A DNA stretch of 64,000 nt from an uncultured Anaerolineae bacterium (GCA_964481205.1 CAYZYE010000002.1:3532-67531), one strand, 5' to 3'. Numbered from the stretch's first letter, positions 12,132 to 37,742 are shown. Notes: generated by a model not told the origin, from the sequence alone. Numbers and translations: made by a program.

Positions 12132-12163
12132 TGAATAGACAACGTAGGCGTTTGATGATATAA
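12132..12163 (+). promoter_or_regulatory. Promoter candidate TAGACA-17-TATAAT upstream of the FHA cluster
   Basis: Read directly from sequence. Confidence 0.3.
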
Positions 12164-12226
12164 TCGAATCCAGTGGCTACCCTGGGGGAGCTGATCGAGA
12201 TCATCCAGCCATTTTGGGAGCGCCAG

Positions 12227-13444: not shown

Positions 13445-13495
13445 TCTCGCCCCTACTGAAACACAACACACCATATTCCATTGAGGAGCATCACG

Positions 13496-14320: not shown

Positions 14321-14371
14321 TCCACTCAGACTCTGGTTCACGCCTGACCCAGTCGATCCTGGAGTGCATAC

Positions 14372-15160: not shown

Positions 15161-15195
15161 TGGGGCTGTTTGGTGGGCCTTGCCGCGCGCCGTGC

Positions 15196-15810: not shown

Positions 15811-15811
15811 C

Positions 15812-16618: not shown

Positions 16619-16645
16619 CTCTCAACCTGACCCCAATAAAAGGCT

Positions 16646-17779: not shown

Positions 17780-17798
17780 AACTTTGGGTTTCCTTGGG

Positions 17799-19082
17799 TT
17801 AGACCGCCCCCTTGTTCAACATTGCCAAAAATTCGGCATTGTTTTCGGTGCTTGATATCCGATCGATCAAAACAGAGGTCGCATCGGCCATATCATACCC
17901 GGCGCCCTTTGGAGGCGATGTCATCAATTGAGCCAACATCCGTCTCATTAACCATACCCTAGATAGGGTACTTTTGTCAAGTAGCAATTCTTCACGCCGG
18001 GTGCTGGAACGGTCAATATCAAAAGCAGGATAAATCCGGCGCTCGGCCAGGCGCCGATTCAGATGCAACTCCATGTTGCCCGTACCCTTGAACTCTTCAT
18101 AGATCAGATCGTCCATGCGGCTGCCGGTATCGACCAGACAAGTCGCCACGATCGTCAGACTGCCGCCCTCCTCGATGTTCCTCGCCGCGCCGAAAAAATG
18201 CTTGGGCGGATAAAGCGCCGCCGGGTCCATACCGCCGGACAGGGTGCGCCCGCTGGGCGGGACAATCATATTATAAGAGCGCGTCAGGCGGGTGATCGAA
18301 TCCAACAAAATCACGACATCGCGCCCATCCTCGACCAACCGCTTGGCGCGATTCAAAGCCATTTCGGCGACGCGCACATGATCGCGCTCCGGCTCGTCAA
18401 AAGTCGAGGCCACAACCTCGGCGTCGACAGAGCGATCCATATCGGTGACTTCTTCGGGGCGTTCGCCGATCAGGCAGACCATCAAATGCACGTCATTATA
18501 ATTGGCCGTAATGCCATTGGCAATCTGTTTCAAGATCATCGTCTTGCCGGCTTTGGGCGGCGACACGATCAGCCCTCGCTGACCGCGGCCAATCGGCGAC
18601 ACCAAATTGATCATCCTCGGCGCGATCGGGTGTTTTCCCGTCTCCAAATCAAACCGCTCGTCGGGAAAAATGGGGGTCAACCGCTCGAAACGTGGACGTC
18701 GCTTGGCCTCTTCGGGGTCCAGGCCGTTCACCGCGTCGATGCGCAACAGGCCAAAATACTTTTCCGTGTCTTTGGGCGGGCGCACCTGACCGATGACCAT
18801 ATCGCCGGTGCGCAGACCAAAGCGCCGAATCTGGGACTGCGAGACGTAAATATCTTCCGAAGAGGGCAAAAAACCTCTGGGGCGCAAAAAACCCAGGCCT
18901 TCATCCACAACATCCAGGATACCGCCGCCAAAATTGTATCCCTGCTGTTCGGCCTGGGTGCGCAGCAAGCGCATAATCAAATCATATTTTTTGAGCCGGC
19001 TAAAGCCCGAAGTGCCCATCTCGCGGGCCAGATCGCGCAAATCTTGTAATGTTTTTAAATCCAATTCACCAAAGGATAACAT
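17799..19082 (-). CDS. rho: Transcription termination factor Rho
   Basis: Full-length match to Rho architecture with a Walker A motif ([11 protein letters not shown]). GGAG RBS. Confidence 0.95.
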
Positions 19083-20265
19083 AAAACAACTCCATACTAA
19101 TTGGCGGTCACGGTCATTGCGAACCCGCCGTACCGCGCCATAACTTCAAAAAAACAGGAACGCCAAAACGTGATCGGGCGCACCGCGCCCAACAAAGTCT
19201 CAATGGGGATAACTTGGCTGTGGCTAACGAGTTTTTTCTTGGAGCAAATTTCAACTTTTGGCTCTCTAATCCCTGACTTGGGTCAACAACCCGGCCCAAG
19301 ACAATGAAAACCATGATTGTTTGAAACGTCAGGAAGGCTCTGTTGGTTCCGGTTTAGTTGGGTCAGGCTTTGAGAACCAAAACGGGGCTGAGTCAAAGGG
19401 GCTTGCCTGGATCAAGATTCGCAGATTCTGCCATTCAAGAAAACCGCCTGGAAAAAAGTAGGATGTCGCAGAATGCTGCAATTTGCAAGAACGCAAACAG
19501 GTATCGTATAATGCCTGTATTATATCATCTTTTCCAAGACACGTCAAATGTCTATTATTTTTCTCAAAATAACACCAATTTCATCTCCCGCGCCAGAACC
19601 CACCGGCGAAATCAGGTTTACTTAACTTGCCTTAAATTTTGACCGGGTTTGCAACGCGCTGCAAACCGCTTCTCGCTCGTAGCTGTAGGTTATATTGGTA
19701 AAAAAAATCGAACATGTGGTACTAGAAACATCAAGGCAACACCGAGCGGGTGAAAACAACTTGCCAACTCGAAACGATTTTGCTACAATACACACGTTCA
19801 TCTCCTGAGCGTCTAGCCACCTGACCTGGACAAACCAGCCGGGCACATGCCCTAACTCTCAAATGTCCCTGTGCGCAGCGACATCTGCTGCATCAAGGCC
19901 TGAGAATTTGGGCGCTGTTTTATTTCTTGCATTACATCTGACAACCTTGTTTCGACGGCTCAACCTCATCGCTTTGGGCTAGGTGGCGAACGAGAATTCA
20001 GTGTATTGCCTCTTGTGCCGTTCTGGTGTAACCTCTCAATACAAGCTCATTTGGCCTGTGTACCTAACCCGTGAGATTTGTCTTTTGCGATAATTTTTCG
20101 CCCGACTTGACCGGGGCAGGTTCGCAATGAACATTCAACCACAGCAATGCGCCACACGACCACCGCAAGATCGGCGGGGCAGCGATGATTTTGCCCTGTT
20201 CGTCTGGCCTGCATCGAGTCTTTTATATCCAGGGGAGGAAAAGACAACCTTGTACCGGGAGCAAA
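19083..20265. promoter_or_regulatory. Candidate oriC / dnaA upstream region
   Basis: 1.2 kb with no coding potential between rho and dnaA. DnaA-box-like 9-mers TGGGGATAA and TGTGGCTAA lie at 19203-19225. An AT-rich stretch at 19500-19620 is a possible DUE. Promoter-like TTGCAA-18-TATAAT (19482-19511) and TTGCCA-17-TACAAT (19761-19789). Confidence 0.4.
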
Positions 20266-21657
20266 ATGATGGAAAACGCAAATAAGGTCTGGCAAGCAGC
20301 ATTGGGCGAGTTGGAACTGCAAATGACCAGGGCGACATTCAATACCTGGCTGAAACCGACCAAGGTTGTTGCCTATGACCAGGACAATCTCGTACTGGGG
20401 GTCCCCAACGGATACATCAAAGATTGGTTGGAAAATCGTTTGTATACCCCGATCCAGCGCACCGTGTCTGGCATTCTCGCCAAGCCCATCGACGTCCAAT
20501 TCATCGTCTGGCCTGACGAACAAGGGATCGAGCAGACAGATGATTTGCCGCTGCTGAACAACGAAAACACCACCCACACCGACTTGATGCAACCCGGCCC
20601 GGCCAACGGCAATGGGCATAAAACCAACGGCAACGGACACGCCTCACTCAACCCCAAATACACGTTCGACACCTTTGTCGTCGGCTCCAGCAACAGGCTT
20701 CCCCACGCCGCCGCGCTGGCCGTCGCCAACTCGCCGGCACAGGCCTACAACCCGCTCTTTTTGTACGGCGGCGTTGGCCTGGGAAAAACACACCTCTTGC
20801 ACGCCATCGGCCACAGCTGCCAGGCGCGCAACCTCAAAGTGCTGTACATCTCTTCGGAGCAATTTACCAACGACCTGATCACGGCGATCCGCACTCAGGA
20901 TACAGAAGCGTTCAGGAACAAATATCGCAACCCCGATGTCTTGCTCATCGACGATATTCAATTCATCGCCGGCAAAGAGAGCACGCAAGAAGAGTTTTTT
21001 CACACTTTTAACACGTTACACGCCGCAAACAAACAAATTGTATTGACCAGCGACCGCCCGCCCAAGGCCATCACCACCCTCGAAGAACGTTTGCGCTCGC
21101 GTTTTGAATGGGGACTCGCCGCCGATATTCAACCGCCAGATTTGGAAACCCGGATCGCGATTTTGCAGTTCAAAACCAGAGATCAGGGCTATGCGGTGTC
21201 GGAACAGATCATCAACCTCATCGCACAACAGGTCGTCAGCAACATCCGCGAGTTGGAAGGCGCACTCAACAAGATCGTCGCCTATGCGGACTTGATGCAG
21301 GTCACGCCAAGCGCAGAAACGCTCGAAATCGCGCTGCGCGACCTGGTTGCAGCGCCCAAAACGCTCACCACCTCTTTGGTGCTCAGCGCCGTAGCCAAAT
21401 TTTACCAGGTCAGCGAAGACGCGATCCGTGGACGAAAGCGCAACAAGGACATTGTCCGCCCCAGGCAAGTGGCAATGTACTTGATGCGCAAAGAAACCAA
21501 CTCGTCGCTGCCGGACATCGGCGCGGCGCTGGGAGGACGCGACCACACTACCGTGCTCTATGGAGTTGAAAAAATCAACGGCTTGCTCGAACAAGACAAC
21601 ACACTCAGAAGGCAAGTCATGACCATCCAGGACGTACTTTATCACAAAGCCAATTAG
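20266..21657 (+). CDS. dnaA: Chromosomal replication initiator DnaA
   Basis: Canonical DnaA N-terminus, AAA+ domain (GGVGLGKTHLLHAIG) and C-terminal DNA-binding domain. Confidence 0.95.
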   Translation: MMENANKVWQAALGELELQMTRATFNTWLKPTKVVAYDQDNLVLGVPNGYIKDWLENRLYTPIQRTVSGILAKPIDVQFIVWPDEQGIEQTDDLPLLNNENTTHTDLMQPGPANGNGHKTNGNGHASLNPKYTFDTFVVGSSNRLPHAAALAVANSPAQAYNPLFLYGGVGLGKTHLLHAIGHSCQARNLKVLYISSEQFTNDLITAIRTQDTEAFRNKYRNPDVLLIDDIQFIAGKESTQEEFFHTFNTLHAANKQIVLTSDRPPKAITTLEERLRSRFEWGLAADIQPPDLETRIAILQFKTRDQGYAVSEQIINLIAQQVVSNIRELEGALNKIVAYADLMQVTPSAETLEIALRDLVAAPKTLTTSLVLSAVAKFYQVSEDAIRGRKRNKDIVRPRQVAMYLMRKETNSSLPDIGAALGGRDHTTVLYGVEKINGLLEQDNTLRRQVMTIQDVLYHKAN

Positions 21658-22364
21658 GCGTTTCCAGAAAAATAACTACCCTGCGTTGCTCTCGCCAGAT
21701 TTGGCAATCCAAGCCGCGCATTCTGGAATAATTTCAAGAGTTATGCGGTTTGTGTTTGAGCCTTTCTAGAACGAAACTTGGGTAATCTGTCATTCTGAGC
21801 CAGCCGTCGCAGGCGGCGCAGTGAAGAATCTTGTGGCTTGAATTTGACATACAAAAAGAGATTCCCTTCGACTGCGCTCAGGGCAGACTTTGTCGCTCCG
21901 CTCCTCACAATGACGGTCCCAGAAAAGTCTTGCTCTAGTACCAGAAAGTCCCAACCATCGAGTTATTGGATAGAACGAGTTGTTTTTTGATATATTTCAG
22001 GCGCAAAACGCCCTCTATGACTCGAACCGCGTAACTCCGGCCAAGATTATCACGCTTGCAATGTGACTTTCTGGCTTGGCGTTTCTATTTGATGCAAGGA
22101 TACCATAGGCATACTGGATACACACCCAACGTGGTTCGGATTAAGGCTGCTCTAGCCGCGTAATCCAAACCGGGCACCCCGCGAAATCCTCCCAGGAGAC
22201 CGCTGAAAAACCCAAGATTAACCAATGACGCAGAGATCATCTTGTATTTGCAAATATCAACAATACTACTCGATGTTTTGTTTCTTTGCGTTCTCTGCGG
22301 TTGGCGGATGCACTGGGAGTTTTTCAGCACACTCTCAGGTCGCTTGACCGGCAAGGACAAGATA

Positions 22365-23159
22365 ATGGTCAACCCACTACCCCATCTCGAAAATTTGGCC
22401 GAGCGATTGGTCGAAGGCACCATCGCCCGCATGCTGGGCGCCCAGGTGCAGCCGCTCGAGGTGGCGCGACGCATTGCGCGAGCCATGGAAGACGGCCAGG
22501 TGATCAACCCCCAGGGCGAGATCGTCGTCCCCAACGAATACCACGTTGCTCTGCACCCCAAAGACCTGTCAGCGATGAACCGATTCCAAGACGCCCTCGA
22601 AACCGAATTGACCCAATACATCTCGAACCTGGCGCGTCAGGCCGGCGCGACAATGGTCGGTCGCCCGCGCGTGACCATCGCCGCGAACCCGGCCACGCCC
22701 TTGAAACATGTGCGCGTGACGGCCCAAGTGGTCAGCGCGCGTCATGGCGCCATCGACGTCACCCACACGCAAGAAATGCCCGCCGTGGCCGCGCTCGCCC
22801 GCGACATCCCTGCTTTTGTCCTTTATGACGGCTATCGACGCATGCCGATCAACGAGGCCATCGTCACCATTGGCCGCAGCCTGGACAACGAGATCATTTT
22901 GGACGACAAACGGGTTTCGCGCCAACACGCGCAACTTCGCCGCCGATACGACCAATACGTACTCTATGACCTCGACTCGACGGGCGGCACCACGGTCAAC
23001 GGCCTGCGCGTGCGAGAGGCCGTTCTACAGCCCGGCGATGTCCTCGCCTTTGCCGGGGTCAAAATCCGGTTCGAGCATACGGCCACGCCATTCGTGCCCA
23101 AAGAAGAACTGGCCTCCGGCGCAACGCGAATCTTGCCTCCCAGAGGAACGCACAAATGA
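22365..23159 (+). CDS. fhaA: FhaA-like protein: DUF3662-type N-terminal domain plus C-terminal FHA
   Basis: Architecture and FHA motif (TIGRSLDNEIILDDKRVSRQHAQL...GTTVNG). The start is ATG 22365 after an AAGGACAAG RBS. Confidence 0.8.
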   Translation: MVNPLPHLENLAERLVEGTIARMLGAQVQPLEVARRIARAMEDGQVINPQGEIVVPNEYHVALHPKDLSAMNRFQDALETELTQYISNLARQAGATMVGRPRVTIAANPATPLKHVRVTAQVVSARHGAIDVTHTQEMPAVAALARDIPAFVLYDGYRRMPINEAIVTIGRSLDNEIILDDKRVSRQHAQLRRRYDQYVLYDLDSTGGTTVNGLRVREAVLQPGDVLAFAGVKIRFEHTATPFVPKEELASGATRILPPRGTHK

Positions 23160-23605
23160 CCGCCAACCTATCCATTTTACTGCTGCGCATCTTGTCCGCA
23201 GGACTCTTGTACGCTTTTTTGACCGGCGCGGTGATCATAATATGGCGCGATTGGCGCGCCGTCGCCCGGCAAATGGAACGCAAAGGCGAAACGGCAACAC
23301 GCTCGCTGGGGCGGCTGATCGTCGTTCGCGCCGGCAAAACACAGCTGATCCAGGGCGAGGCCATCCCCCTGAACGTCATCACCCGCCTGGGACGCGCGCC
23401 GGCCAACACGGTTGCCATTCAAGATGCGTTTGCCTCCTCGGAACACGCCCTGCTTGCTTTGCGCAATGGCCGGTGGTGGCTACAAGACCTGAACAGTCGC
23501 AACGGCACACTGCTCAACGAAGAAAAATTGACCGCCTCGGCCATCGTGTCAACCGGCGACGTGATCGGCATCGGCGAGGTCAGATTGCGAATCGATTTAG
23601 GATGA
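23156..23605 (+). CDS. fhaB: FhaB-like membrane-anchored FHA domain protein
   Basis: One TM helix then an FHA domain (GRAPANTVAIQDAFASSEHALL...SRNGTLLNEEKL). The ATG overlaps the fhaA stop. Confidence 0.75.
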   Translation: MTANLSILLLRILSAGLLYAFLTGAVIIIWRDWRAVARQMERKGETATRSLGRLIVVRAGKTQLIQGEAIPLNVITRLGRAPANTVAIQDAFASSEHALLALRNGRWWLQDLNSRNGTLLNEEKLTASAIVSTGDVIGIGEVRLRIDLG

Positions 23606-23617
23606 AAAAGGAGCAAA

Positions 23618-24499
23618 TTGATGAACCCCATACCCAACGCCATCATTGGCGGCAGCGGACTGTACCAGCTGGAAGGCCTGACCGGCGTCCAGAAGCTCGA
23701 CATTGACACCCCGTTCGGCAAACCCTCCGACACGATCATTGCCGGCCAATTGGATGGGATCGGGGTGGCCTTTTTGCCTCGCCACGGGCGCGGGCACCGC
23801 ATTTCGCCCACCGAACTGCCCGCGCGAGCCAATATCTGGGCACTCAAAAGCCTGGGCGTCCAGCGGATCATTGCCAGCAGCGCGTGCGGCTCGCTCAAAG
23901 AACAAATCGCCCCGCGCCACATCGTCATCCCCGACCAACTCTACGACCGCACGCGCCACCGCCGGCCGCACACCTTTTTCGATGGCGGCATCGTCGCCCA
24001 TATTGGCTTTGCCGAACCGTTTTGCCCCACGCTGCGCCAAATTCTGATCGACGGCGTTCAGGCGGCCGGGGCCATCGTCCACGACGGCGGAACGATGGTG
24101 GTGATCGAAGGCCCCCAATTTTCCACCAAAGCCGAATCCAACATTTACCGCCGCCTGGGCTTTGACACCATCGGCATGACCGCCCTGCCAGAGGCCAAAC
24201 TGGCCCGCGAAGCCGAGATTTGCTACGCCTCGATGAACCTGGTCACAGACTATGACGTGTGGCGCGCCGGACACGACCAAGTCACAGTCGAAATGGTGAT
24301 CGCCAACATGCAGGCCAACCTGGAAACGGCCAAAAACATCATCCGCTATGCCCTGCCCAAAATGAACGCCCTCGACGCCGCACCCGCTTGCGGCTGCCCG
24401 AACGCGCTGGCCGGGGCGATCATTACCCACCCGGCGCACATTCCGGCGCACAAAAAAGAGCAGCTCGGGCTGCTGATCGAAAAATATGTCCACGACTAG
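23618..24499 (+). CDS. mtnP: S-methyl-5'-thioadenosine phosphorylase (purine nucleoside phosphorylase family 2)
   Basis: MTAP-type motifs (IIGGSGLY, LPRHGRGHRISP, VIEGPQFSTKAESN). Confidence 0.85.
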   Translation: MMNPIPNAIIGGSGLYQLEGLTGVQKLDIDTPFGKPSDTIIAGQLDGIGVAFLPRHGRGHRISPTELPARANIWALKSLGVQRIIASSACGSLKEQIAPRHIVIPDQLYDRTRHRRPHTFFDGGIVAHIGFAEPFCPTLRQILIDGVQAAGAIVHDGGTMVVIEGPQFSTKAESNIYRRLGFDTIGMTALPEAKLAREAEICYASMNLVTDYDVWRAGHDQVTVEMVIANMQANLETAKNIIRYALPKMNALDAAPACGCPNALAGAIITHPAHIPAHKKEQLGLLIEKYVHD

Positions 24500-27229: not shown

Positions 27230-27295
27230 TCCTGGATGCTCCAGGGGGATTGGCAAATTCTCCTCTTGGGTTGACGCTTGATCAATCGCGCCAAA

Positions 27296-29377
27296 TTACT
27301 GCCCCAGCGCCTCCAGCGCCTCCTCGCGGCGATTGATCGCCCACTCGTAATCGCCGTCGATCTCGATCGCGCGATCAAAGGCCATGATCGCCTCTTGATA
27401 GCGCTGCGCGTCGACCAACAGTTGCCCCTTGTGCGCATAGGCCCAACTGTACTGATCGTCGAGCAAAATGGCCTCGTCAAACGCGGCAATGGCTTCATCA
27501 TAACGCGCTTGCAGGCGCAGCGTTTCGCCCTTTTCAGCCCAAACCCAGGGCAAAGTCGGATCCACCTCGGTGGCCCGATCCAGAGCGGCTATGGCGTCCG
27601 TCAGACGCTCCAGTTGCCGGAGCGTCTGACCAATACTGCCCAGCGCCCAGGCATAGCGCGGCTGCAAGTCGATGGCCCGTTCAAAAGCCGCCAGCGCCTC
27701 CTCGTACTCGCCGGTCTGGCGCAGCGTTTCGCCCTTTTGCGCCCACACCCAGGACATTTGATCATTCAACTTGATGGCCTGGTTCAGCGCCACCAGCGAT
27801 TCCTCATAACGGTTGGTATGGCGCAGCGCAAGCCCCAGGTTGCCCCAGGCCCAGGGATAATCTTTATCCAGGCTAACCGCCTGCTGAAACGCCTCGACGG
27901 CCTCTGGATAACGCTTGAGCAGCCGCAAACTCTCGCCTTTTTCACCCCAAATCCAGGCGATGGCGCTGTCGGCCTGGATCGCCCGCTCGATGGTCTCGAC
28001 CGCCTGTTCATATTGCTCCGACATGCGCAGGGCTTGAGCCATACTTCCCCAGGCCCAGGCATAATCTGGGTCCAGCTCGACCGCACGCCGAAAAGCCGCA
28101 ATCGAATCATCATACCGTTCCATTTGACGCAGTGTTTCCCCTTTGGAACCCCAGGCCCAGGCATAGTCCGCGTCGAGTTCAATCGCCTCGACCAATGCGG
28201 CCAGCGCATCCTCGTAACGTTTGGCCTGTCGCAGCGCCTCGCCGCGATGCGCCCAAGACCAGGAATAATCGCGCCGGATCTCGAGGGCGCGCGCAAAGGC
28301 GTCCTCGGCCTGATCAAAGTCCCCATTTTGGCGATACGCCTCGCCCAAATGCGCCCAGGCCCAGTCGTTGTCCTGAACCAGCTGCACCGCGCTTTGAAAA
28401 GCGGCGATCGCTTGATCATAGCGACCCAATTCACGCAGGGCTTCGCCTTTTTCGGCCCAGACCCAACTTTCCGGATCGAGGGCCAGGGCGCGTTCGAGCG
28501 GTGCCAAAGCTTCCTGGTATCGATCTACCTGGCGATAGGCCTGCCCCAGGCTGGCCAGCGCCCAGGCATAGTTGGGGTCAACGGTAATGGCTTCCAAAAA
28601 GGCGGCGATCGCTTCATTAAAGCGGTCCAGTTGGCGCAACGCCTCGCCTTTGCTGGCCCATGCCCAGGCATATTGGGCATCGACGGAAACAGCGCGGTCC
28701 AGCGCCTCGACCGCCTCGTCGTATTGACCGGCCACCCGCAACGCCTCGCCCTTGTGCGCCCACGCCCAGGCGTAATCGGGGTCCAGCTCGATGGCGTGAT
28801 CGAACGCCGCCATCGCCTGGTCATAACGCCGCGCCTGGGTCAACGTCTCGCCCTTTTCTGCCCAGGCCCAGGCATTGTCCGGCTCGGCGCTCAATACCTG
28901 CTCGAATACATCCAACGCATCTTCAATTTGCCCATTTTGACGCAGCGCCTGCCCTTTGCTCGACAGCGCCCAAATGTTTTCGGGGTTGATTTCGATGGCC
29001 AGATCAAAATATTCGAGCGACTCTTGATAGCGCCCCATCTCACGCATCGACTCGGCGAGATGCGCCCAGGCCCACTCGTATTGGGGATCGATCTCGACCG
29101 CGCGTTGAAAGGAAGAGATTGCGCGCTCGTATTGGCCCGCCTCGCGCAGCGTCTCGCCGCGATGCGCCCAGGCCCAATCGTATTTGGGATTAAGCTCCAA
29201 AGCGCGATCAAAGGCCGAGACGGCCAAATCGTATTGGCCTTGCTCGCGCAAAGACTCGCCGCGCCTGGCCCAATCTTGGGCAAACTGTGCGCTGTGCCCC
29301 GCCGAAAGGATATTCAAATGCGCCTTGACTGACTTGGGTGATTTTGGTTTAGACCACTTGTCTACCTGACCGGTCAT
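27296..29377 (-). CDS. Tetratricopeptide repeat protein with ~20 highly regular TPR units
   Basis: 34-aa repeats of the pattern D..YAWAWA.KGEAL...RY.EA..AFD.A.ELDP. The start is at MTGQVDK with an AGGAGA RBS. The ORF extension further upstream runs into the MITE. Confidence 0.85.
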   Translation of the reverse strand: MTGQVDKWSKPKSPKSVKAHLNILSAGHSAQFAQDWARRGESLREQGQYDLAVSAFDRALELNPKYDWAWAHRGETLREAGQYERAISSFQRAVEIDPQYEWAWAHLAESMREMGRYQESLEYFDLAIEINPENIWALSSKGQALRQNGQIEDALDVFEQVLSAEPDNAWAWAEKGETLTQARRYDQAMAAFDHAIELDPDYAWAWAHKGEALRVAGQYDEAVEALDRAVSVDAQYAWAWASKGEALRQLDRFNEAIAAFLEAITVDPNYAWALASLGQAYRQVDRYQEALAPLERALALDPESWVWAEKGEALRELGRYDQAIAAFQSAVQLVQDNDWAWAHLGEAYRQNGDFDQAEDAFARALEIRRDYSWSWAHRGEALRQAKRYEDALAALVEAIELDADYAWAWGSKGETLRQMERYDDSIAAFRRAVELDPDYAWAWGSMAQALRMSEQYEQAVETIERAIQADSAIAWIWGEKGESLRLLKRYPEAVEAFQQAVSLDKDYPWAWGNLGLALRHTNRYEESLVALNQAIKLNDQMSWVWAQKGETLRQTGEYEEALAAFERAIDLQPRYAWALGSIGQTLRQLERLTDAIAALDRATEVDPTLPWVWAEKGETLRLQARYDEAIAAFDEAILLDDQYSWAYAHKGQLLVDAQRYQEAIMAFDRAIEIDGDYEWAINRREEALEALGQ

Positions 29378-29437
29378 TGGGTCTCCTGTACAACACATGG
29401 TGAAAAGCGCCAAACTTGAGATCAGTACAGGGCTGTT

Positions 29438-29600
29438 CAATTCTAATGTGTGACTAAAGTCACCGCTGGCGGGCTGAAGCCGGGCGTCCCACCTGCGTGG
29501 ACGCCACCGTCGGCGGGGCCTCGTCGCCGTAGGGGGACGACCAGCCAACGGCTCGCCAAGCGCGGTTTCAACCGCTGGATTGTAGAATTGAACAGCCCTG
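29438..29600. mobile_element. MITE-like repeat, family 1, copy 2 (long form with an internal GGCGTCC...GGACGCC hairpin)
   Basis: Same TIRs as copy 1. Flanked by a 9-bp direct repeat AGATCAGTA on both sides. Confidence 0.75.
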
Positions 29601-30167: not shown

Positions 30168-30206
30168 CGGATACACACAAAACAAATCTCGAAAGGAGGC
30201 TCATCG

Positions 30207-30574
30207 TGAGCGAAAAACAAGTTGAATTCAAGGATGTCGAAATCGAAGAACCGGTGGTTCAAGAACCACCCAAGAAAAAGGCGGCCAGCGAAAGCGTGAC
30301 CAAAGCGATCAATAGCTTTATGGAAACGCTGGAATCCGCGCTCAGTGGACGCGGCAACTCGGTGATGGTTCGCGTCAATGACGAAGCATTGGCCAAGTTG
30401 GACATGCTGGTCCAGGCCGGCATCTGCAAGAGCCGTTCAGAAAGCGCCGCATTCCTTTTGCAGCGCGGCATCGAGGGCAGCGCCAAGCTGTTCGATCGCA
30501 TCGAGTCGGTGACGGCCAAGATCACCAAACTGCGCGCAGACCTGTTGTCCTCGGTACAAGAACTGGACAAATAG
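30207..30574 (+). CDS. Small ribbon-helix-helix (CopG/Arc/MetJ-like) protein, candidate regulator
   Basis: GTG start after an AGGAGG RBS. An RHH-like segment (NSVMVRVNDEALAKLDMLVQAGICKSRSESAAFLLQRGIEG). The ORF-track start at 30047 overlaps yccF and was not used. Confidence 0.5.
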
Positions 30575-30586
30575 TCCGCCAGTGTT

Positions 30587-30637
30587 CCCCCCTGAACGCG
30601 CCTGGGCAGATATTTTGCCCAGGCGCGTTTTTTTGAC
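30587..30637 (+). terminator. Rho-independent terminator
   Basis: Perfect hairpin AACGCGCCTGGGCA...TGCCCAGGCGCGTT followed by TTTTTTT. Confidence 0.65.
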
Positions 30638-30703
30638 TTTGGCAAGAGCATAGTGGTATGATATAATCCAGGTGAGCACATTTACCGGGCAAGGAGGAAA
30701 AAA

Positions 30704-31132
30704 ATGAATCAATCCAAGGCCGCTGGCGGCATAGCGATCACGATCATGGGTCTCGTTTTTCTTTGTGTGGGCGGCATCCTCGGCGGATTTGGCGTGCTGT
30801 ACACATTGGCCGCCTTTGACGAAACCGCCGCCAACCCCGGCGGGCGACTGGCTATGGGCATCGGCATGATTGCCGTCGGGCTGATCATCTGGTCGGCGGC
30901 GGCAGTGGGCGCGTTCCTGGCCTGGCGTCGAATGCAGCCCAAACCGGAAACCAAGATCACGATCAAGCAAGAGGTCGAACTGACCGGCGACATTGACCTG
31001 GCCTCATTGAAATGCGACAAATGCAACGCCACATTGGACAAAGACGCCGTCACCGTGCAACAAGGCGCCCTGCTGATCTCTTGCCCCTACTGCGGCGCAA
31101 CCTATCAAGTGATCGAAGAACCCAAGTGGTAA
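30704..31132 (+). CDS. Small membrane protein with a C-terminal CxxC...CxxC zinc-ribbon
   Basis: Two N-terminal TM helices. The C-terminus reads KCDKCNATLD...SCPYCGATYQV. AAGGAGG RBS. Confidence 0.5.
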   Translation: MNQSKAAGGIAITIMGLVFLCVGGILGGFGVLYTLAAFDETAANPGGRLAMGIGMIAVGLIIWSAAAVGAFLAWRRMQPKPETKITIKQEVELTGDIDLASLKCDKCNATLDKDAVTVQQGALLISCPYCGATYQVIEEPKW

Positions 31133-31181
31133 AAATACCCAATACCAGTACCCGATCATTTTCTGATCTGAGGAGTGAGTC

Positions 31182-32864
31182 ATGAACTGGAAACGACTGT
31201 TCCTGGTTGTCTGCTTGCTGGGCGCACTGTTTGTCGGTGCCGCCCCCAAAGCGGCAGCGCAGGCCTATCGATTCACGGTCGATCGCAACATATCGCACGT
31301 CTACGCCAACAGCGACGGCTCGGCCACCATTGAATACGCCCTCACTTTTAGCTGCGCCCCCGGCGCGCACCCCATCGACATCATTGACGTTGGGCTGCCC
31401 AACAACAGCTATGACCTCGACTCGGCCCAGGCCTGGTTTAGTCCTGGCGCCGGCGGAGAGAAACGACACGCACTGACGAAAATCTATAAATCGTCCGAAG
31501 TCGCGATCGGCGTCGAAGTCCACCTGGGACAATACACGATCAAACCGGGCAGCCAGGGCACGCTCATGTTCCGAATCACGGTCAGGGAAATGGTCTATGC
31601 AGACAGCAAAGACCAGGATTACGCCAGCCTCGAATTTGCGCCCACATTTTACGGCAAAAAATACACCCGGGGCGAAACCTACCTCGAAATCAACTTGCAC
31701 TTTCCCCCCGGCTTGAGCAAAGAAGAACCGCGCTATCACAAGGAACAATATCACAAAGCAACAGTGCAAGACGGGCGATTCGTGTTCACCTACATCTATC
31801 CCAACGCCACCGGTTATGAAACCCACCGGCACGGCATCTCGTTCCCGCGCAAATATGTGGACAAGGTCTACAAAGCGCCGCTAATGATCGGCGGACGCCC
31901 CTTTGACGAGTGGGTCAACATTGTAGTCGAAAAGATCAGCGGCTTTACCTGTTTTGGCGGCATGGTGCTGTTCTTTATCCTCTCATCGGCGATCAGCGCC
32001 GCGCAAAGCAAAAAGCGCAAGATGAAATACCTGCCCCCGGCGCTCTCGGTCGAAGGCGTGGGGATCAAACGCGGCCTCACCGCCGTCGAAGCCGCGATCT
32101 TGCTCGAAACGCCGCTCGACAAAGTGATGACCATGATCCTGTTCGGCATCCTCAAGAAAAAAGGCGTCGTCGTCCTGAGCGAAAACCCGCTCAAACTGGA
32201 AAAGGTCGAGCCCGCGCCCAAAGTCAAATGGCGCGACTATGAAACGACCTTTTTGGAAAGCATCAAAAGCAACGGCAAACTCGACGAGAAAAAACTGCAA
32301 AAAATGGTCGTCGCCTTGATCAAAAACCTCAACAAAAAACTCAAAGGCTTTAGCCGCAAAGAAACGGTCGATTATTACAAAACCATTGTCGATCGCGCGT
32401 GGAAACAGGTTCAGGCCGACACCACGCCGGAGGTCAAATCCAGGCACTTTGATCAGGGACTAGAGTGGATGATGCTCGACAAGAACTTTGACGAACGCAC
32501 CGAAAAAACCTTTCAAAGCGGGCCGGTGTACATGCCGCCCTGGTGGGCCTATTACCGCCCCTGGCGTTCGCGCGTCAACACGTCGCGCATCGGCGGCGGA
32601 ACGGGGTCGCCCGGTCGCAGCGGCGGCAAAGCAGTGACCCTGCCCACTTTGCCCGGCTCGGCCTTTGCCGGCGCCATCGTCAGCGGCATCGAAACCACCG
32701 CCGGCGGCATCGTCAGCAAAGTAGAAAACTTTACCGGCGGCATCACCAGGCGCACCAACCCACCGCCGGTCAGCTCGAGCGGCGGCGGCAGCAGCTCTGG
32801 TGGATGCGCTTGCGCTTGCGCCTGCGCCGGATGCGCCTGCGCCTGCGCCGGTGGCGGGCGGTAA
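31182..32864 (+). CDS. Signal-peptide-bearing membrane protein with a DUF2207-like layout, ending in a Gly/Ser-rich tail with a (Cys-Ala)n repeat (GCACACACAGCACACAGGGR)
   Basis: N-terminal signal peptide and a central TM helix. The tail is encoded by a (TGCGCY)n hexanucleotide repeat at 32806-32850. GAGGAG RBS. Confidence 0.6.
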   Translation: MNWKRLFLVVCLLGALFVGAAPKAAAQAYRFTVDRNISHVYANSDGSATIEYALTFSCAPGAHPIDIIDVGLPNNSYDLDSAQAWFSPGAGGEKRHALTKIYKSSEVAIGVEVHLGQYTIKPGSQGTLMFRITVREMVYADSKDQDYASLEFAPTFYGKKYTRGETYLEINLHFPPGLSKEEPRYHKEQYHKATVQDGRFVFTYIYPNATGYETHRHGISFPRKYVDKVYKAPLMIGGRPFDEWVNIVVEKISGFTCFGGMVLFFILSSAISAAQSKKRKMKYLPPALSVEGVGIKRGLTAVEAAILLETPLDKVMTMILFGILKKKGVVVLSENPLKLEKVEPAPKVKWRDYETTFLESIKSNGKLDEKKLQKMVVALIKNLNKKLKGFSRKETVDYYKTIVDRAWKQVQADTTPEVKSRHFDQGLEWMMLDKNFDERTEKTFQSGPVYMPPWWAYYRPWRSRVNTSRIGGGTGSPGRSGGKAVTLPTLPGSAFAGAIVSGIETTAGGIVSKVENFTGGITRRTNPPPVSSSGGGSSSGGCACACACAGCACACAGGGR

Positions 32865-32892
32865 ACATTACATATCGTAAAGGAGCGATCCA

Positions 32893-34260
32893 ATGTCTAT
32901 CCTTTCTCAACTCAAGCGATTTTTTACCTCGGAACAGCCGCTCGAAAAAGCCATGTACCAATATCGCACCCCGCCCGACGCCGAGGAACGTTTTCGGCTG
33001 CATCTGCGCGTCGAAGCAGACGGCACCGGCATCCTGGTGATCAACGCCTCCAAAGTGCTGCACCTCAACCAGACGGCCACCGAAATGGCAAAAATGATCC
33101 TCGAAGAACTGCCCGCCGAACAAGCCGCCAAACAAATGGCCCGCCGCTACCGGGTCACGCAAGCGCAGGCGCTGGCCGATTACCGGTCACTGCACGACAA
33201 AATCTTTGTCCTGAGCCGCACCGACGAGGTTTGCCCGATCACCTACCTCGATGTGCAGCGCATCGACCCTTTCAAAACCCCCGCCTCGGCGCCCTACCGG
33301 ATGGACCTGGCCCTCACCTATGCCTGCAACGACAACTGTGCGCACTGTTATGTGGCCCGCCCACGCGATTTTCCAACCATGAGCGTGGACAAGTGGAAAA
33401 AGGTGATCGACCGCTGCTGGGATGTGGGCATTCCGCACATCACCTTTACCGGCGGCGAAGCGACACTCTATCCGGGACTGCGCGAACTGGTCGAATACGC
33501 CGAGGATGTGGGACTCGTAACCGGCCTGCTGACCAATGGGCGCAAACTCGCCGACCGCGCCTACCTCGACGGGCTGATCGAGGCCGGCCTCGATCACGTC
33601 CAAATCACCCTCGAATCGCACGACGAGGCAATTCACGACCGGATGGTCGGCGCCGAGGGCGCGTGGCAAGAAACGATGGCCGGGATCAAAAACGCCGTCG
33701 ATGCCGACATTTACATGATGACCAACACCACCCTCACCGACCTCAACGCGCCCACGATTGAAGACACGATCGACCTGCTCGCCGGACTGGGCGTACCCAC
33801 CGTCGCCTGCAACGGCCTGATCTTTGCCGGCAAAGGCGTCGACGTCGGCATCGGCATCCCCGAACACGACCTGGAACCGATCATGGCCCAGGTGCAGGCA
33901 CGAGCCAAGGCGCACGAACTGCGCCTGATCTGGTACACCCCCACCCGCTACTGCGAGTTCAACCCGTTGGAACACGACCTGGGCGTCAAAGGCTGCTCGG
34001 CGGCAAAATACAACATGTGCGTCGAACCAAACGGCGACGTGCTGCCCTGCCAGAGCTATTTCCAAAGCATGGGCAACATCCTCACCGACCCGTGGGAGAG
34101 CATTTGGAACAGCGCGCTGGCCAACTCGATCCGCAACCGCGACTGGCTGCCCGACGAATGTCTCGACTGCCCCGACAAAGAAATCTGCGGCGGCGGCTGC
34201 CCGCTATATGCCGCCGAAGGCGAATACCAATGCCGCGACAGCCAGAACACGGCGGGGTGA
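32893..34260 (+). CDS. Radical SAM / SPASM-domain enzyme with an N-terminal PqqD-like RRE domain (RiPP-maturase-like)
   Basis: CxxxCxxC motif (CNDNCAHC) about 145 aa in. C-terminal Cys-rich SPASM region (CLDCPDKEICGGGCP). The N-terminal 100 aa resemble PqqD/RRE (KVLHLNQTATEMAKMILEELP). AAAGGAG RBS 28 nt after the upstream stop. Confidence 0.85.
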   Translation: MSILSQLKRFFTSEQPLEKAMYQYRTPPDAEERFRLHLRVEADGTGILVINASKVLHLNQTATEMAKMILEELPAEQAAKQMARRYRVTQAQALADYRSLHDKIFVLSRTDEVCPITYLDVQRIDPFKTPASAPYRMDLALTYACNDNCAHCYVARPRDFPTMSVDKWKKVIDRCWDVGIPHITFTGGEATLYPGLRELVEYAEDVGLVTGLLTNGRKLADRAYLDGLIEAGLDHVQITLESHDEAIHDRMVGAEGAWQETMAGIKNAVDADIYMMTNTTLTDLNAPTIEDTIDLLAGLGVPTVACNGLIFAGKGVDVGIGIPEHDLEPIMAQVQARAKAHELRLIWYTPTRYCEFNPLEHDLGVKGCSAAKYNMCVEPNGDVLPCQSYFQSMGNILTDPWESIWNSALANSIRNRDWLPDECLDCPDKEICGGGCPLYAAEGEYQCRDSQNTAG

Positions 34261-34312
34261 GAGCCGATGAAAAAAATGGACGCGCCCCGGCAATGACCTG
34301 GGTAAAAATCTA

Positions 34313-35749
34313 ATGTCAACACAAACCCACCACCTGCATTGGACCCGCCAAGACCAACAACAAAACCCATACCCGCTCCTGCCCTTTGATGTCCCAACCG
34401 GCACGGCGCAGATCACGATCACCTACAACGTCCTCCCAACCTCACCCGAAACCCCCCAGACGCAAAACATCATCGATCTGGGGCTGTTCGATCCGCGCGG
34501 GCACAGCTTTCTCGACGCGCCGGGATTTCGCGGCTGGAGCGGCGGCGCGCGTTCGACGATCACCATCTCGGCCCACCAGGCCACACCCGGCTATTTACCC
34601 GGCCCCATCCAGGCGGGAACCTGGCGCGTGCTGCTGGGCCTGTACCGGATCGCCCCGCAAGGATGCGATCTGGCGATCACGATCACCCTGCAACCGGGCG
34701 ATCCCACGCCCACCGCGCCGCCGGCGTACCCGTCGCCGGGCGTGTTACGCGACCGTCCGGGCTGGTACCGGGGCGACCTGCACTGCCACACCCACCATTC
34801 CGACGCCACCGGCAGCGTCGCCGATCTGGTACAGGCCGCGCGCAGCCAAAACCTCGACTTTATCGCCGTCACCGACCACAACACGATCAGCCACCTGCCC
34901 GATTTGGCGCGGCAGCAAAGCCCGGCGCTGCTGCTGATCCCCGGCATCGAGATCACCACCTATCGCGGGCACGCCAACGTGTGGGGCGTCCGCGAGTGGA
35001 TCGACTTTCGCGCCACCGGCGACGCCGAAATGCGCCGCATCCGCGAGCACGTGTATGCCCTGGGACTGCCCTTTTCGATCAACCATCCCAAACACAACGG
35101 CCCGGCCTGGATGTTCGATGATCTGTTTGACGCCGACGCGGTCGAAGCGTGGCAAGGGCCATGGTGGCTGGGCAACCATGAATCACTGGCCTTTTGGGAA
35201 CGCCTGCTGCGACAGGGCAAACGCATCCCCCTGGTCGGCGGCAGCGACAAGCACCAAAAACCATTCACCGGCGAACTGACGCGCCACGAGGTCGGCATGC
35301 CGACAACCTGGGTCTATGCCCAAAACCTCTCCGAGCGCGCCATCCTGGAAGGCATTCGCGCCGGACACGTGTTTGTCTCCCAATCGCCGCTTGGGCCGCG
35401 CATCGAGTGTACGGCCCAAGCGGGCGGCCAAACCGCAATGCTCGGCGACGAACTAGCCGTCGCTCCGGGACGCGCCATCGACCTGACCTGCCGCATCACC
35501 GGCGGCGCGTCATGCGCCGAAAACGGCGGCCTCTTGCGCGTGATAGACAAAAACGGCGAGACGCGCCGCGTCCGCATTGACGCCGACGACTGGCGCTACA
35601 CCTGGCAGATACGCGCCCACCACCAGGACCACAACTATGTGCGCGTCGAGGTCGTCAAAGCAACCACCGCCCCCCCGGATCAAGACCCGGCACCCTTGGT
35701 TTGCGCGCTCGGCAATCCCATCTATATTCGAGCGCCAAGCCAGGCCTAA
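34313..35749 (+). CDS. PHP-domain (CehA/McbA-like) metallohydrolase with an N-terminal beta-rich domain
   Basis: PHP motif GDLHCHTHHSD, then DFIAVTDHN and IEIT, with a later GGSDKH. Confidence 0.7.
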   Translation: MSTQTHHLHWTRQDQQQNPYPLLPFDVPTGTAQITITYNVLPTSPETPQTQNIIDLGLFDPRGHSFLDAPGFRGWSGGARSTITISAHQATPGYLPGPIQAGTWRVLLGLYRIAPQGCDLAITITLQPGDPTPTAPPAYPSPGVLRDRPGWYRGDLHCHTHHSDATGSVADLVQAARSQNLDFIAVTDHNTISHLPDLARQQSPALLLIPGIEITTYRGHANVWGVREWIDFRATGDAEMRRIREHVYALGLPFSINHPKHNGPAWMFDDLFDADAVEAWQGPWWLGNHESLAFWERLLRQGKRIPLVGGSDKHQKPFTGELTRHEVGMPTTWVYAQNLSERAILEGIRAGHVFVSQSPLGPRIECTAQAGGQTAMLGDELAVAPGRAIDLTCRITGGASCAENGGLLRVIDKNGETRRVRIDADDWRYTWQIRAHHQDHNYVRVEVVKATTAPPDQDPAPLVCALGNPIYIRAPSQA

Positions 35750-35792: not shown

Positions 35793-37742
35793 ATGATACA
35801 CCAGACAGCACAGCGTACAAAACCACATTCATCGATCCACTGGACATTGCTGATCATTTTGCTGATCGGCGCCTGGTTCAGATGGGCCTCACTGGGACGA
35901 ATGAACGACATGCTTCACTATGACGAAGCCTACAACGGCATCGACGCCGCCTCACTGCTCGACGCCCCGCGCCTCACCCCATTCTTTCCAGACAACTTTG
36001 GGCGAGAAAGCGGCTGGCACTATTTGGCCGCGCCGTTCATCGCCATCTGGGGCGCGACCCCTTTTTCCATGCGCCTCCTCTCGACAATGCTCGGCATCCT
36101 CACCCTGGCCGCCATTTACCCGCTAGGCCAGGAATTGCTTGGCCCAACCGGCGCAACGTGGAGCGCGGCCTCGTTGGCCGTGCTCTATTGGCACGTACAC
36201 ATCAGCCAATTGGCCCTGCGCGCCATCCTCTTCCCCTTACTCGGCGTCCTGGCGCTGGCCTGCCTGCTCAACGCGCGCCGCACAAACACCCGCCGGGCCT
36301 GGCTGTGCGGTGGACTGTTTCTCGGCTTGATGGCCTATTCCTATTTTTCTGCCCTGTTGTGGATAATATACACCGTTCTTTCACTGTTGGCATGGACAAG
36401 ATCGTCGGAACGGCGGCGGGGCGCGCTCATCGCCCTGACAATCGCCGCCGTCCTCGCGCTGCCCCTCGTCATCTATACCATCCGCGACCCCGCGCACACG
36501 CTCACGCGCACCAACACCGTCGCTGCCGCCTCGATGACCCAGATTGCCAACAACTCGCTGCTCTGGGCCAAAGCCTGGTTCGAGACAGGCGACACAATTC
36601 CCGAATTCAACCTCAAAGGCCGCCCGATCCTCGACCCATACCTGGGGACACTCGTCCTCGCCGGGCTGGCCGGGTTGTTCCTGGCCGTCCGCCGCAAATG
36701 GGACAGCCTCTGGCTGCTCGGATTGGCCCTTTTTGCCATGCTGCCCTCGATTTTGAGCGAAAACGCGCCCCACTTTTTACGCGCCGTCGGGCTGACGATC
36801 CCCATCTCTCTCCTGACCGGCGCCGGCGCGCAGACAGCGCAGCGTCTTGTGCAGCGCATTTCCGGCCGGAACACACTCGCGCTCCTGCTCCCCCTGGCCC
36901 TGTTGTCTGCCAGCGGCGCAATTGCCTACCGCGACTTTCACCAACGCTGGCTCAACCACCCAGAAACATTCTGGTTTATGGAAGAACACGTCAATCGCGC
37001 CGCCAACTTTATCAAAGCAAACACCGCCGGCGCGATGCCGGTCTACTTGGCGCCATTTGCGCCCGGACACCCCGTAGTGATCTTGCGCAGCCGCGACCTC
37101 GCGCCGCGCTACGTCGGCACGTTTGACCCGCAGCAATGTCTCGTCATCGCCGACCGCCCCGCCATCTATGTCGCGCTGACCCAATATCAGCCCGAATTCG
37201 AGCAAACCATGTCCAAATGGCTCGAGATGACGATCCTTGACCAGGATCGAAACGCGGCCGGCAAGAGACCGCGATACACCGTTTTTCGGGCCGCGCCGCG
37301 CGCCGACGCGCCGCTCGCCGGCAAAACGACATTCATGTTCGCCGACACTTTGCGCCTGCGCGCGATACAACCCATTTCAGACACCGCCCGTCCGGGGCAG
37401 CGCATCCCCATCCTGCTCGCCCTCGACACCAGGCGCCCCCTCAAGCGCCCGTACAGCGTCTTTGTGCATCTCTACGGCGACCCGGCGCCCGCCCAGGGCG
37501 GCGCAATCTGGGGCTATGGCGACAGCCAACTCTGCGTCTCGTACCCCACCAACTTTTGGCGGCCCGGCGAAAGCGTGCTGCAACAATTTACACTCAACGT
37601 CGCACCCAACACGCCACCCGGCGATTACGACATTGCCGTGGGCGTATACGAAAGCCCGGCCGGCGCGAGGCTGCCCGTCACCAACCCGGAATCGCCACCC
37701 GCCGATTATATCCTCTTGAAAACGATCCATGTCCAACAATGA
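35793..37742 (+). CDS. GT39/ArnT-like membrane glycosyltransferase paralog with the family C-terminal domain
   Basis: A YDEAYNG loop motif after the first TM, many TM helices, and the shared C-terminal domain (SVFVHLYGDP...WRPGESV...PGDYDIAVGVY). Confidence 0.7.
   Translation: MIHQTAQRTKPHSSIHWTLLIILLIGAWFRWASLGRMNDMLHYDEAYNGIDAASLLDAPRLTPFFPDNFGRESGWHYLAAPFIAIWGATPFSMRLLSTMLGILTLAAIYPLGQELLGPTGATWSAASLAVLYWHVHISQLALRAILFPLLGVLALACLLNARRTNTRRAWLCGGLFLGLMAYSYFSALLWIIYTVLSLLAWTRSSERRRGALIALTIAAVLALPLVIYTIRDPAHTLTRTNTVAAASMTQIANNSLLWAKAWFETGDTIPEFNLKGRPILDPYLGTLVLAGLAGLFLAVRRKWDSLWLLGLALFAMLPSILSENAPHFLRAVGLTIPISLLTGAGAQTAQRLVQRISGRNTLALLLPLALLSASGAIAYRDFHQRWLNHPETFWFMEEHVNRAANFIKANTAGAMPVYLAPFAPGHPVVILRSRDLAPRYVGTFDPQQCLVIADRPAIYVALTQYQPEFEQTMSKWLEMTILDQDRNAAGKRPRYTVFRAAPRADAPLAGKTTFMFADTLRLRAIQPISDTARPGQRIPILLALDTRRPLKRPYSVFVHLYGDPAPAQGGAIWGYGDSQLCVSYPTNFWRPGESVLQQFTLNVAPNTPPGDYDIAVGVYESPAGARLPVTNPESPPADYILLKTIHVQQ

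Follow-up and report, generated by a model that had tools for sequence, protein, structure and literature searches.

We analysed a 64,000-nucleotide (nt) stretch of DNA from an uncultured Anaerolineae bacterium (GCA_964481205.1 CAYZYE010000002.1:3532-67531; the window), which carries five open reading frames (ORFs) on its plus strand between 30.2 and 35.8 kb. Central to this group are a 560-amino-acid (aa) membrane protein that ends in alternating cysteine and alanine, here called the tail protein (31182..32864), and a 455-aa radical S-adenosylmethionine (SAM) enzyme encoded directly downstream of it (32893..34260). The pair is preceded by genes for a 122-aa ribbon-helix-helix (RHH)-like protein (30206..30574) and a 142-aa zinc-ribbon membrane protein (30704..31132), and followed by a gene for a 478-aa PHP metallohydrolase of the CehA/McbA family (34313..35749). 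Judged from sequence comparisons, the pairing of tail and enzyme suggests that a protein tail is modified in a way not described before.

The zinc-ribbon, tail, radical-SAM and PHP genes are separated by only 49, 28 and 52 nt, so that the operon has no room for a small precursor ORF; the absence of such an ORF beside the enzyme, claimed in an earlier note on this DNA, is thereby confirmed. Two positions given there need correction. The first gene starts at 30206 rather than 30207, and what lies 28 nt after the tail-protein stop is the ATG of the radical-SAM gene, not its ribosome-binding site, which reads AAGGAG at 32880..32885 on the plus strand.

The tail protein and the radical-SAM enzyme

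The tail protein ends in GGCACACACAGCACACAGGGR (in a longer reading of the end, ...SSSGGGSSSGGCACACACAGCACACAGGGR), and seven of its ten cysteines sit in the tail proper, CACACACAGCACACAGGGR, which comprises residues 542-560 (32805..32861) and is the presumed substrate of the enzyme. Hydropathy analysis reveals a signal-like segment at residues 3-26 and a single transmembrane (TM) segment at 252-275, after which seven Lys/Arg residues stand against one Asp/Glu. By the positive-inside rule, this excess predicts a cytoplasmic location for the C-terminal half of the protein, including the tail. The predicted topology, together with the ORF itself, agrees with the earlier description of a 560-aa signal-peptide and TM protein with a cytoplasmic Cys-Ala tail. 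We considered whether the C-terminus might be a sorting signal for a sortase or exosortase and rejected this, as the motif is followed by neither a TM segment nor a cluster of basic residues and has a predicted cytoplasmic position.

The AlphaFold2 (AF2) model of the tail protein (predicted local distance difference test score, pLDDT, 80.7) consists of a confidently predicted β-sandwich ectodomain (residues ~30-225), the TM helix, a confidently predicted helical cytoplasmic domain (~295-468) and two helices (492-525), and ends in a disordered segment (530-560) that contains a Ser/Gly linker and the tail. Being both cytoplasmic and disordered in these predictions, the tail is likely accessible. 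Shortly before it lies the motif FTGGITRRTNPPP (32730..32768; consensus FTxxVTxxTNPxP), a candidate 'leader-like' recognition element. In an alignment of 18 sequences, F517, T518, T522, T525 and P527 of this segment are invariant and N526 is kept in at least 90%; motifs resembling TNPxP are retained in archaeal and other bacterial tail proteins. The protein matches no Pfam or NCBIfam model, its family profile gave no meaningful match among PDB sequences, and a search of the tail alone against NCBIfam with hmmscan returned only noise.

Several features of the ectodomain and the cytoplasmic domain may be recorded here. In the AF2 model, the former (window 31270-31860) has a fold like that of OST1/ribophorin I and the latter (window 32065-32585) a fold like that of GOLPH3/Vps74; this pairing of eukaryote-like folds, in a family also present in Heimdall- and Hodarchaeota, would be a resemblance of predicted folds only. 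Some family members (P0075, 927 aa; P0086, P0091 and P0093, ~770 aa) bear long N-terminal extracytoplasmic extensions, and the DUF1080 and Laminin_G_3 domains of P0075 hint at a carbohydrate- or surface-binding role of the ectodomain.

Among more than 3,834 homologs, mostly from Anaerolineae metagenome-assembled genomes (MAGs), 118 of the best 120 (40-68% identical) end in CACACA(CA)GCACACAGGGR, and the other two are truncated at the C-terminus. We also searched a family profile against 1.84 billion cluster representatives (clusters at 50% identity), which yielded 1,186 members with E <= 1e-3, of which 445 had E <= 1e-30. A (Cys-Ala/Val)n tail ends 133 of the best 149 representatives, and the remaining 16 look like truncated gene fragments. 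At the DNA level, the identical 19-residue tail is encoded in 47 distinct versions among 51 loci, and all codons available for Cys, Ala, Gly and Arg are in use. It is therefore the peptide that is under selection, rather than a repeat in the DNA or RNA, and to judge from these alignments purifying selection on the tail is extreme, as it is invariant in proteins that share only 45-68% identity outside it.

Some variation does occur. Tails may contain 4+3, 5+3, 3+3, 3+4 or 2+4 Cys-Ala units around one Gly or Ser. In Methanomassiliicoccales, one Thermoplasmatota MAG and Heimdallarchaeota the repeat is an uninterrupted (CA)5-6, and forms such as CVCACVSCACVCACVSCACACASGGAG have up to ~10 cysteines; overall, the number of cysteines ranges from 5 to ~10. 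Val replaces Ala in some lineages, the residue before each Cys is Gly, Ala, Val or Ser, and the GGGR terminus is nearly universal.

The radical-SAM enzyme has the hallmarks of a peptide maturase that the earlier note had read from its sequence. Pfam places it in the radical SAM superfamily (PF04055, 90.4 bits versus a cut-off of 29.5), with the CxxxCxxC core formed by C145, C149 and C152, and in the SPASM subfamily (PF13186, 41.8 bits versus 21.5), and detects a PqqD-like recognition element for peptides that are made on ribosomes and modified after translation (RiPPs), the RiPP recognition element (RRE), at residues 51-101 (PF05402, 24.6 bits versus 23.4). The Pfam match and the AF2 fold together qualify it as an RRE-bearing maturase, peptide binding by the RRE being a prediction. 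In proteins of this kind, CxxxCxxC lies within a partial TIM barrel and holds the [4Fe-4S] cluster that cleaves SAM, the SPASM domain (CX9-15GX4C ... CX2CX5CX3C ... C) holds auxiliary Fe-S clusters, and the RRE is a winged helix; the predicted fold of the window enzyme matches radical-SAM structures. In alignments that include bacterial and archaeal sequences, nine cysteines are invariant (C145, C149, C152, C368, C386, C423, C426, C432 and C436), as is the SPASM spacing C368, G381-x4-C386, C423-x2-C426-x5-C432-x3-C436; C354 is nearly invariant, and the last SPASM cysteine, C448, is found in some lineages only. The AF2 model (pLDDT 78; predicted template-modelling score 0.82) has an RRE-like domain at ~20-110, composed of strands (20-58) followed by three helices (60-109). 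In a Foldseek search it matched the RRE-bearing SkfB, SuiB and CteB over the full length, including the RREs of SuiB and CteB, and SkfB (89 bits) and PqqE (71 bits) were the closest solved proteins by sequence in a phmmer search of the PDB.

All 68 NCBIfam matches of the enzyme fall far below their cut-offs. They include the models for PqqE (128.3 bits versus 381), AhbD (119 versus 500), SkfB (92.5 versus 300), AlbA (89.5 versus 850), MftC (81.3 versus 265), SbtM (74.8 versus 350), StsB (74.4 versus 625) and the radical-SAM enzyme of the ACGX system (TIGR04340, 67.5 versus 400, over the radical-SAM core only). We therefore rejected membership in the AlbA/SkfB/StsB, PqqE, MftC, SbtM and ACGX families; moreover, no pqq or mft genes (PqqA-D, MftA/B) were found in the conserved neighbourhood. 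Anaerobic sulfatase-maturating enzymes (anSMEs) are recognized by a match to their family model, the lack of an RRE and a C/S-x-P/A-x-R substrate motif in the sulfatase. The present enzyme is not an anSME, an identity that the earlier note had set against its own proposal: it has an RRE, the anSME model is not among its 25 best NCBIfam matches (the lowest at 58 bits), an anSME appears in the Foldseek results only as a distant match (4k37, rank 23), and the operon contains neither a sulfatase gene nor a sulfatase motif. On its sequence and predicted fold, we regard it as a bona fide RRE-radical-SAM-SPASM maturase outside any described family.

One annotation problem should be mentioned. In several loci (L008, L014, L018, L033, L057, L067 and others), the ORF lists extend the start of the radical-SAM gene into the tail repeat in another frame (MCLRLRLRR...), an artefact that could mislead automatic start-codon annotation.

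Co-occurrence of tail and enzyme

The association was examined from both sides. For a tail-seeded set, one genome per species was scanned for tail patterns and candidates were confirmed by tblastn against the rest of the protein, which gave 76 loci. An enzyme-seeded set of 80 metagenome loci was found by radical-SAM motifs alone (50-81% identity). A homolog of the window enzyme is located near the tail gene in 68 of the 76 tail-seeded loci, at a median distance of 52 nt from the tail stop; conversely, the end of a CA-tail ORF lies just upstream in 69 of the 80 enzyme-seeded loci. Co-occurrence of this enzyme clade with CA-tailed proteins, on which the earlier note had made its proposal depend, is thus strong in both directions, and the pairing is not a local accident.

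Most tail-seeded loci belong to Chloroflexota, including the cultured Ornatilinea apprima (L025), and one lies in a complete genome (CP084166.1). Other bacterial loci come from Planctomycetota, Myxococcota (Polyangiaceae), Aminicenantes, Hydrogenedentes, Sabulitectum, Clostridia and Oscillospiraceae, and archaeal loci from Methanomassiliicoccales, Thermoplasmatota, Nanoarchaeia (DPANN), Hodarchaeota and Heimdallarchaeota.

Among the enzyme-seeded loci without a detected tail, five have no upstream sequence and six have room upstream. In two of these six (L097 and L134), the enzyme gene is directly followed by the same class-I methyltransferase gene as in other loci of the system, because of which these look like split loci. 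The arrangement of the pair also varies. An NTP_transf_2/HEPN toxin-antitoxin pair lies between the tail and radical-SAM genes in L001 (9638-10358), and likewise in L002 and L003, the pairing being otherwise intact. The gene order in Planctomycetota is zinc-ribbon, radical-SAM, (paralog), tail, and the Oscillospiraceae have a 350-aa short form of the tail protein that lacks the cytoplasmic domain. The link between tail and enzyme survives such rearrangement, be it insertion, altered order or the short form. In L048 (7025-10806), L126 and L147, a tandem pair of CA-tailed paralogs stands beside a single radical-SAM gene.

Partner genes and operon boundaries

Clustering of all ORFs from the loci defined a conserved core consisting of the zinc-ribbon protein, the tail protein and the active radical-SAM enzyme (CxxxCxxC, 12-17 Cys). 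The zinc-ribbon protein, whose homolog adjoins the tail gene in 62 of the 76 genome loci, has two TM windows (4-38 and 47-75), a cytoplasmic CxxC...CxxC ribbon, the C-terminus ...EEPKW and weak matches to YnfU/zinc-ribbon models. In the two Planctomycetota loci inspected for a natural fusion of the zinc-ribbon protein with the enzyme (L066 and L076), the genes overlap in different frames and are not fused.

Among the 76 genome loci, 48 also encode a class-I methyltransferase of ~250 aa (Methyltransf_11), as do 28 of the 36 enzyme-anchored loci that have at least 3 kb of downstream sequence; its best NCBIfam match, below cut-off, is the DVU_1556 family. Members of the window's own clade (L004, L007, L083, L085, L090) have a single radical-SAM gene, usually followed directly by the methyltransferase gene. 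In a subset of Anaerolineales, extra genes are inserted between the radical-SAM and methyltransferase genes (L013:14271-15278, L015:14664-15641, L011:6254-7258, L012:5737-6078); by eye, their products look like a PTP-like phosphatase (HCxxGxxRTG), an HExxH protein, proteins of 113 aa and 334 aa, and a C_GCAxxG_C_C-like protein.

Most Anaerolineales also possess a second, catalytically dead radical-SAM paralog of ~385 aa (for example L025:12129-13289; also L013, L014 and L016), which keeps the PqqD-like domain and part of the radical-SAM fold and has lost CxxxCxxC and nearly all other cysteines. The RRE of the window enzyme (32893-33228) scores 111-116 bits against the RREs of dead paralogs (best two) versus at most 80.5 bits (75-80) against those of active paralogs, and in all six Anaerolineales pairs compared (L025, L031, L016, L013, L045, L043) the dead copy is the closer one. 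The catalytic domain of the window enzyme follows the opposite pattern, being nearer to the active paralogs. This contrast suggests that the dead copy specialized in substrate recognition after a duplication (subfunctionalization). Neither the methyltransferase nor the dead paralog was found by tblastn across the whole 64-kb window, in which the PHP hydrolase occupies the position usual for the methyltransferase.

The gene content proposed in the earlier note is therefore upheld in part. The small zinc-ribbon membrane protein is present, with its two TM segments and CxxC...CxxC ribbon, and turns out to be a core component; the PHP identity of the hydrolase is likewise sound, as it belongs to the CehA/McbA family (NF038032, 242.1 bits versus a cut-off of 80). 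However, homologs of the PHP and RHH-like proteins occur only in the closest relatives of the window (L004-L006) and in none of the 80 enzyme-anchored loci. We rejected both as parts of the system and regard them as lineage-specific; the methyltransferase and, in many lineages, the dead paralog do belong to the system. The RHH-like protein, also called as a gene in the source assembly, has no Pfam match and a weak match to the C-terminus of AbmR; from its sequence, an RHH fold is plausible.

The clean terminator that the earlier note had placed at the end of the cluster lies instead 5' of the zinc-ribbon gene. A consensus scan predicts one strong intrinsic terminator at 30594-30630 (plus strand; 17-bp stem and T-run), between the RHH-like and zinc-ribbon genes, and directly after it a promoter-like site at 30633-30667 (plus strand; TTGGCA-17-TATAAT, 11/12 matches to consensus). 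Because these two elements, in this order, precede the zinc-ribbon gene, the operon likely starts there, and 30594-30667 is probably the 5' boundary of the zinc-ribbon, tail and radical-SAM operon, leaving the RHH-like gene as an upstream neighbour behind the terminator. At the other end, no terminator was found 3' of the PHP gene, where there is a 7-bp hairpin without a T-run. A gene for a PMT_2-type glycosyltransferase (window 35794-37742) starts ~45 nt past the PHP gene with no terminator between them, so the operon may run on into it; a homolog (27% identity) is also found downstream of the system in L085.

Elsewhere in the window, the region 12000-24000 has a G+C content of 0.52-0.59 versus ~0.63 in the flanks and an inverted AT skew, and could be an island. 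At 27278-29548, a minus-strand gene for a 750-aa tetratricopeptide-repeat protein is mirrored by a 684-aa plus-strand ORF that is almost certainly spurious. Rfam and tRNA scans of the window returned no matches.

Proposed modification of the tail and comparison with known systems

We propose, with a probability of roughly 0.6, that the locus encodes a membrane-anchored substrate protein and a dedicated maturase that modifies its tail covalently. In this model, a type-I membrane protein would present a flexible Ser/Gly linker and the (Cys-Ala)n-GGGR tail to the cytoplasm, and the enzyme encoded 28 nt downstream would dock through its N-terminal RRE on the FTxxVTxxTNPxP segment. Using 5'-deoxyadenosyl radical chemistry, with the SPASM clusters as electron conduits, it would then modify the Cys-Ala units repeatedly, one after another, and the modified tail would stay attached to the protein. 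In most lineages the class-I SAM methyltransferase would act on the product, the dead RRE-bearing paralog may help to present the substrate, and the zinc-ribbon membrane protein is a constant partner.

As the tail holds only Cys, Ala and Gly besides the terminal Arg, few chemistries are realistic, and the most likely would be a Cys-centred oxidation. The replacement of Ala by Val and the variable repeat number favour Cys-centred or Cα chemistry over reaction at the Ala methyl group, and the range of 5-10 cysteines together with the Val substitutions fits repeated Cys-centred modification of each unit. Two products have precedents among SPASM enzymes, which makes both plausible: QhpD makes Cys thioethers in a protein subunit (PMC10114670), and SbtM makes thio(seleno)oxazole from Gly-Cys (PMC9204691). 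Accordingly, the tail might acquire sactionine-type thioether cross-links between Cys sulfur and Cα (about -2 Da each), a possibility that we rate as somewhat doubtful on its own, or each pair of small residue and Cys might be converted to a 5-thiooxazole as by SbtM (about -4 Da each), which is about as good a candidate; other covalent chemistry, such as formylglycine formation or epimerization, is more doubtful still. Either of the first two would give a rigid, thiol- or thioether-rich element able to bind metal, and since thiooxazole formation keeps the thiols free, these would be available for metal binding or for S-methylation by the methyltransferase. More speculatively, we tentatively suggest that the enzyme and then the methyltransferase make a polymeric, protein-derived structure (5-10 contiguous thiooxazoles or a thioether ladder) that serves as a membrane-tethered metal-binding or electron-carrying cofactor. 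It is equally tentative that such a cofactor would be carried by a protein whose ectodomain is OST1-like and whose cytoplasmic domain is GOLPH3-like, and that anaerobes as far apart as Chloroflexota and Asgard archaea would have conserved it.

A number of observations weigh against this proposal. We infer the tail's role as substrate, the docking site, the chemistry and the function of the product from guilt by association, and the sequence of the enzyme does not indicate its chemistry because it reaches no curated family cut-off. The two genes are apart in six enzyme-anchored and about seven tail-anchored loci, and in L097 and L134 the methyltransferase is the sole neighbour from the system that the enzyme keeps. 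The methyltransferase, common in relatives, is absent from the window. Fitting seven cross-links into 15 residues would be unusual, on steric grounds, for chemistry of the sactipeptide type; the zinc-ribbon protein, equally conserved and containing cysteines, could be an alternative partner or target; and CxC-rich tails are able to bind metals without any modification.

The last of these points leads to an alternative that we consider unlikely, namely that the tail is an unmodified metal- or iron-sulfur-binding motif and that the enzyme acts elsewhere (on the zinc-ribbon protein, a lipid or a small molecule) or relies on the membrane protein for anchoring or for the donation of clusters or electrons. 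In an extended strand, the alternation would make all cysteines point to one side, which suits ligation by multiple thiolates, the rows of CxC thiolates are like those of metallothionein, and the repeat number is loosely constrained; enzyme-methyltransferase pairs without an adjacent tail gene (L097, L134) and scores below the cut-off of every characterized peptide-maturase family are also in keeping with it. However, the enzyme carries an RRE, a domain specialized for peptide substrates, and its gene adjoins the tail gene as tightly as in precursor-maturase pairs (median gap 52-61 nt). The near-invariant small residue before each Cys and the GGGR terminus exceed what metal binding needs, and clustering of the ORFs from the loci revealed no other conserved candidate for a peptide substrate.

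It is rather improbable that the membrane protein is instead an oversized RiPP or cofactor precursor, from which the modified (Cys-Ala)n segment is cut off as a small product (a metallophore or redox cofactor) in the manner of pyrroloquinoline quinone or mycofactocin. The layout of conserved motif, Ser/Gly linker and invariant C-terminal core resembles that of a leader and core, PqqE and MftC are among the closest NCBIfam matches of the enzyme, methyltransferases are common tailoring partners, and a metallohydrolase is encoded nearby in the window and its closest relative. Yet no protease is conserved with the system, the PHP hydrolase being lineage-specific; strong conservation extends over both the ectodomain and the cytoplasmic domain, so that the whole protein appears as one unit and not as a sacrificial carrier; and it would be costly for the cell to use up a membrane protein of 560 aa for every molecule of product. 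That the Cys-Ala run is chance low complexity or a DNA repeat (a TGCGCC microsatellite), with coincidental adjacency of the enzyme, has next to no probability. The coding DNA in the window is indeed a simple GC-rich repeat, but we rejected this explanation in view of the codon variety among the identical tails, the presence of the tail in 133 of the best 149 cluster representatives, and the association in both directions across bacteria and archaea.

Covalent modification of the tail by its neighbouring maturase, which we prefer, would amount to a new post-translational modification of a protein and probably to a new function for anaerobic cell envelopes. In our experience, few short motifs that span Bacteria and Archaea are conserved as rigidly as this tail, whose 19 residues are identical in proteins with 45% identity elsewhere. 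Two peptide-specific tail strings had no occurrence in the full-text literature, where the only match was a substring shared with DNA sequences. Full-text searches on Cys-Ala and ACGX repeats, on DUF2207 with radical SAM, on SPASM with Chloroflexi or Asgard, and on TrsS/DVU_1556 returned nothing relevant, and we found no family model or paper describing the tail-enzyme system.

Among membrane proteins, the closest likeness is to DUF2207 proteins, which typically have a Gly-rich C-terminal tail. The two share the succession of signal or anchor, extracytoplasmic β domain, TM segment, cytoplasmic part and C-terminal tail. Sub-threshold matches to the DUF2207 models (PF09972/PF20990) were obtained for the C-terminal domain in 3 of 18 family members (best E 0.004) and for the N-terminal domain in 1 of 18 (E 0.048); the window protein had no match, and none of the 18 reached the Pfam threshold. 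These weak similarities hint at a distant relationship. We know of no DUF2207 protein with a Cys-Ala tail or a radical-SAM partner.

To our knowledge, the described roles of RRE-bearing radical-SAM-SPASM enzymes lie almost entirely in producing small secreted peptides or cofactors, whereas here a large and strongly conserved membrane protein apparently offers its cytoplasmic tail as the substrate. Conventional RiPP precursors are short peptides whose N-terminal leader is cleaved away to free the C-terminal core, and the 560-aa carrier is not of this kind. The maturases AlbA, SkfB and CteB have the same N-terminal RRE, radical-SAM core and SPASM/Twitch domain and act on Cys-rich substrates, and SkfB is the best match to the window enzyme among solved structures both by sequence and by fold. 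In their sactipeptide and ranthipeptide systems, however, the substrate is a short leader-core peptide in which donors and acceptors form two separate halves, while in the tail every donor is next to a possible acceptor in strict alternation, and the window system lacks a conserved protease or exporter. The ACGX-repeat system (TIGR04340), whose peptide repeats a short unit of Ala, Cys and Gly in tandem, likewise has a radical-SAM/SPASM enzyme; its repeat unit differs, and its carrier is not a large membrane protein as here.

By description, a functional parallel is QhpD, a radical-SAM-SPASM enzyme that installs thioethers in QhpC, a protein kept as a functional subunit and not a secreted product (PMC10114670). 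QhpC, however, is a small soluble subunit with Asp/Glu acceptors, whereas the window tail offers only Cys, Ala and Gly. SbtM, a SPASM enzyme, oxidizes Gly-Cys to 5-thiooxazole with the thiol kept (PMC9204691), which recalls the small residue before every Cys of the tail, and its hosts (Geobacter and related strains) are anaerobes like the carriers of the window system. The SbtM substrates differ in being short peptides with one or two sites, in contrast to 5-10 tandem sites on a membrane protein; the score below the SbtM family cut-off leaves similar chemistry possible. Thus, the system resembles in its workings the radical-SAM-SPASM maturation of RiPPs or proteins, and its class of enzyme is familiar, whereas no description exists of its class of substrate (the C-terminal tail of a large conserved membrane protein), its accessory set or its chemistry; it is also spread unusually widely.

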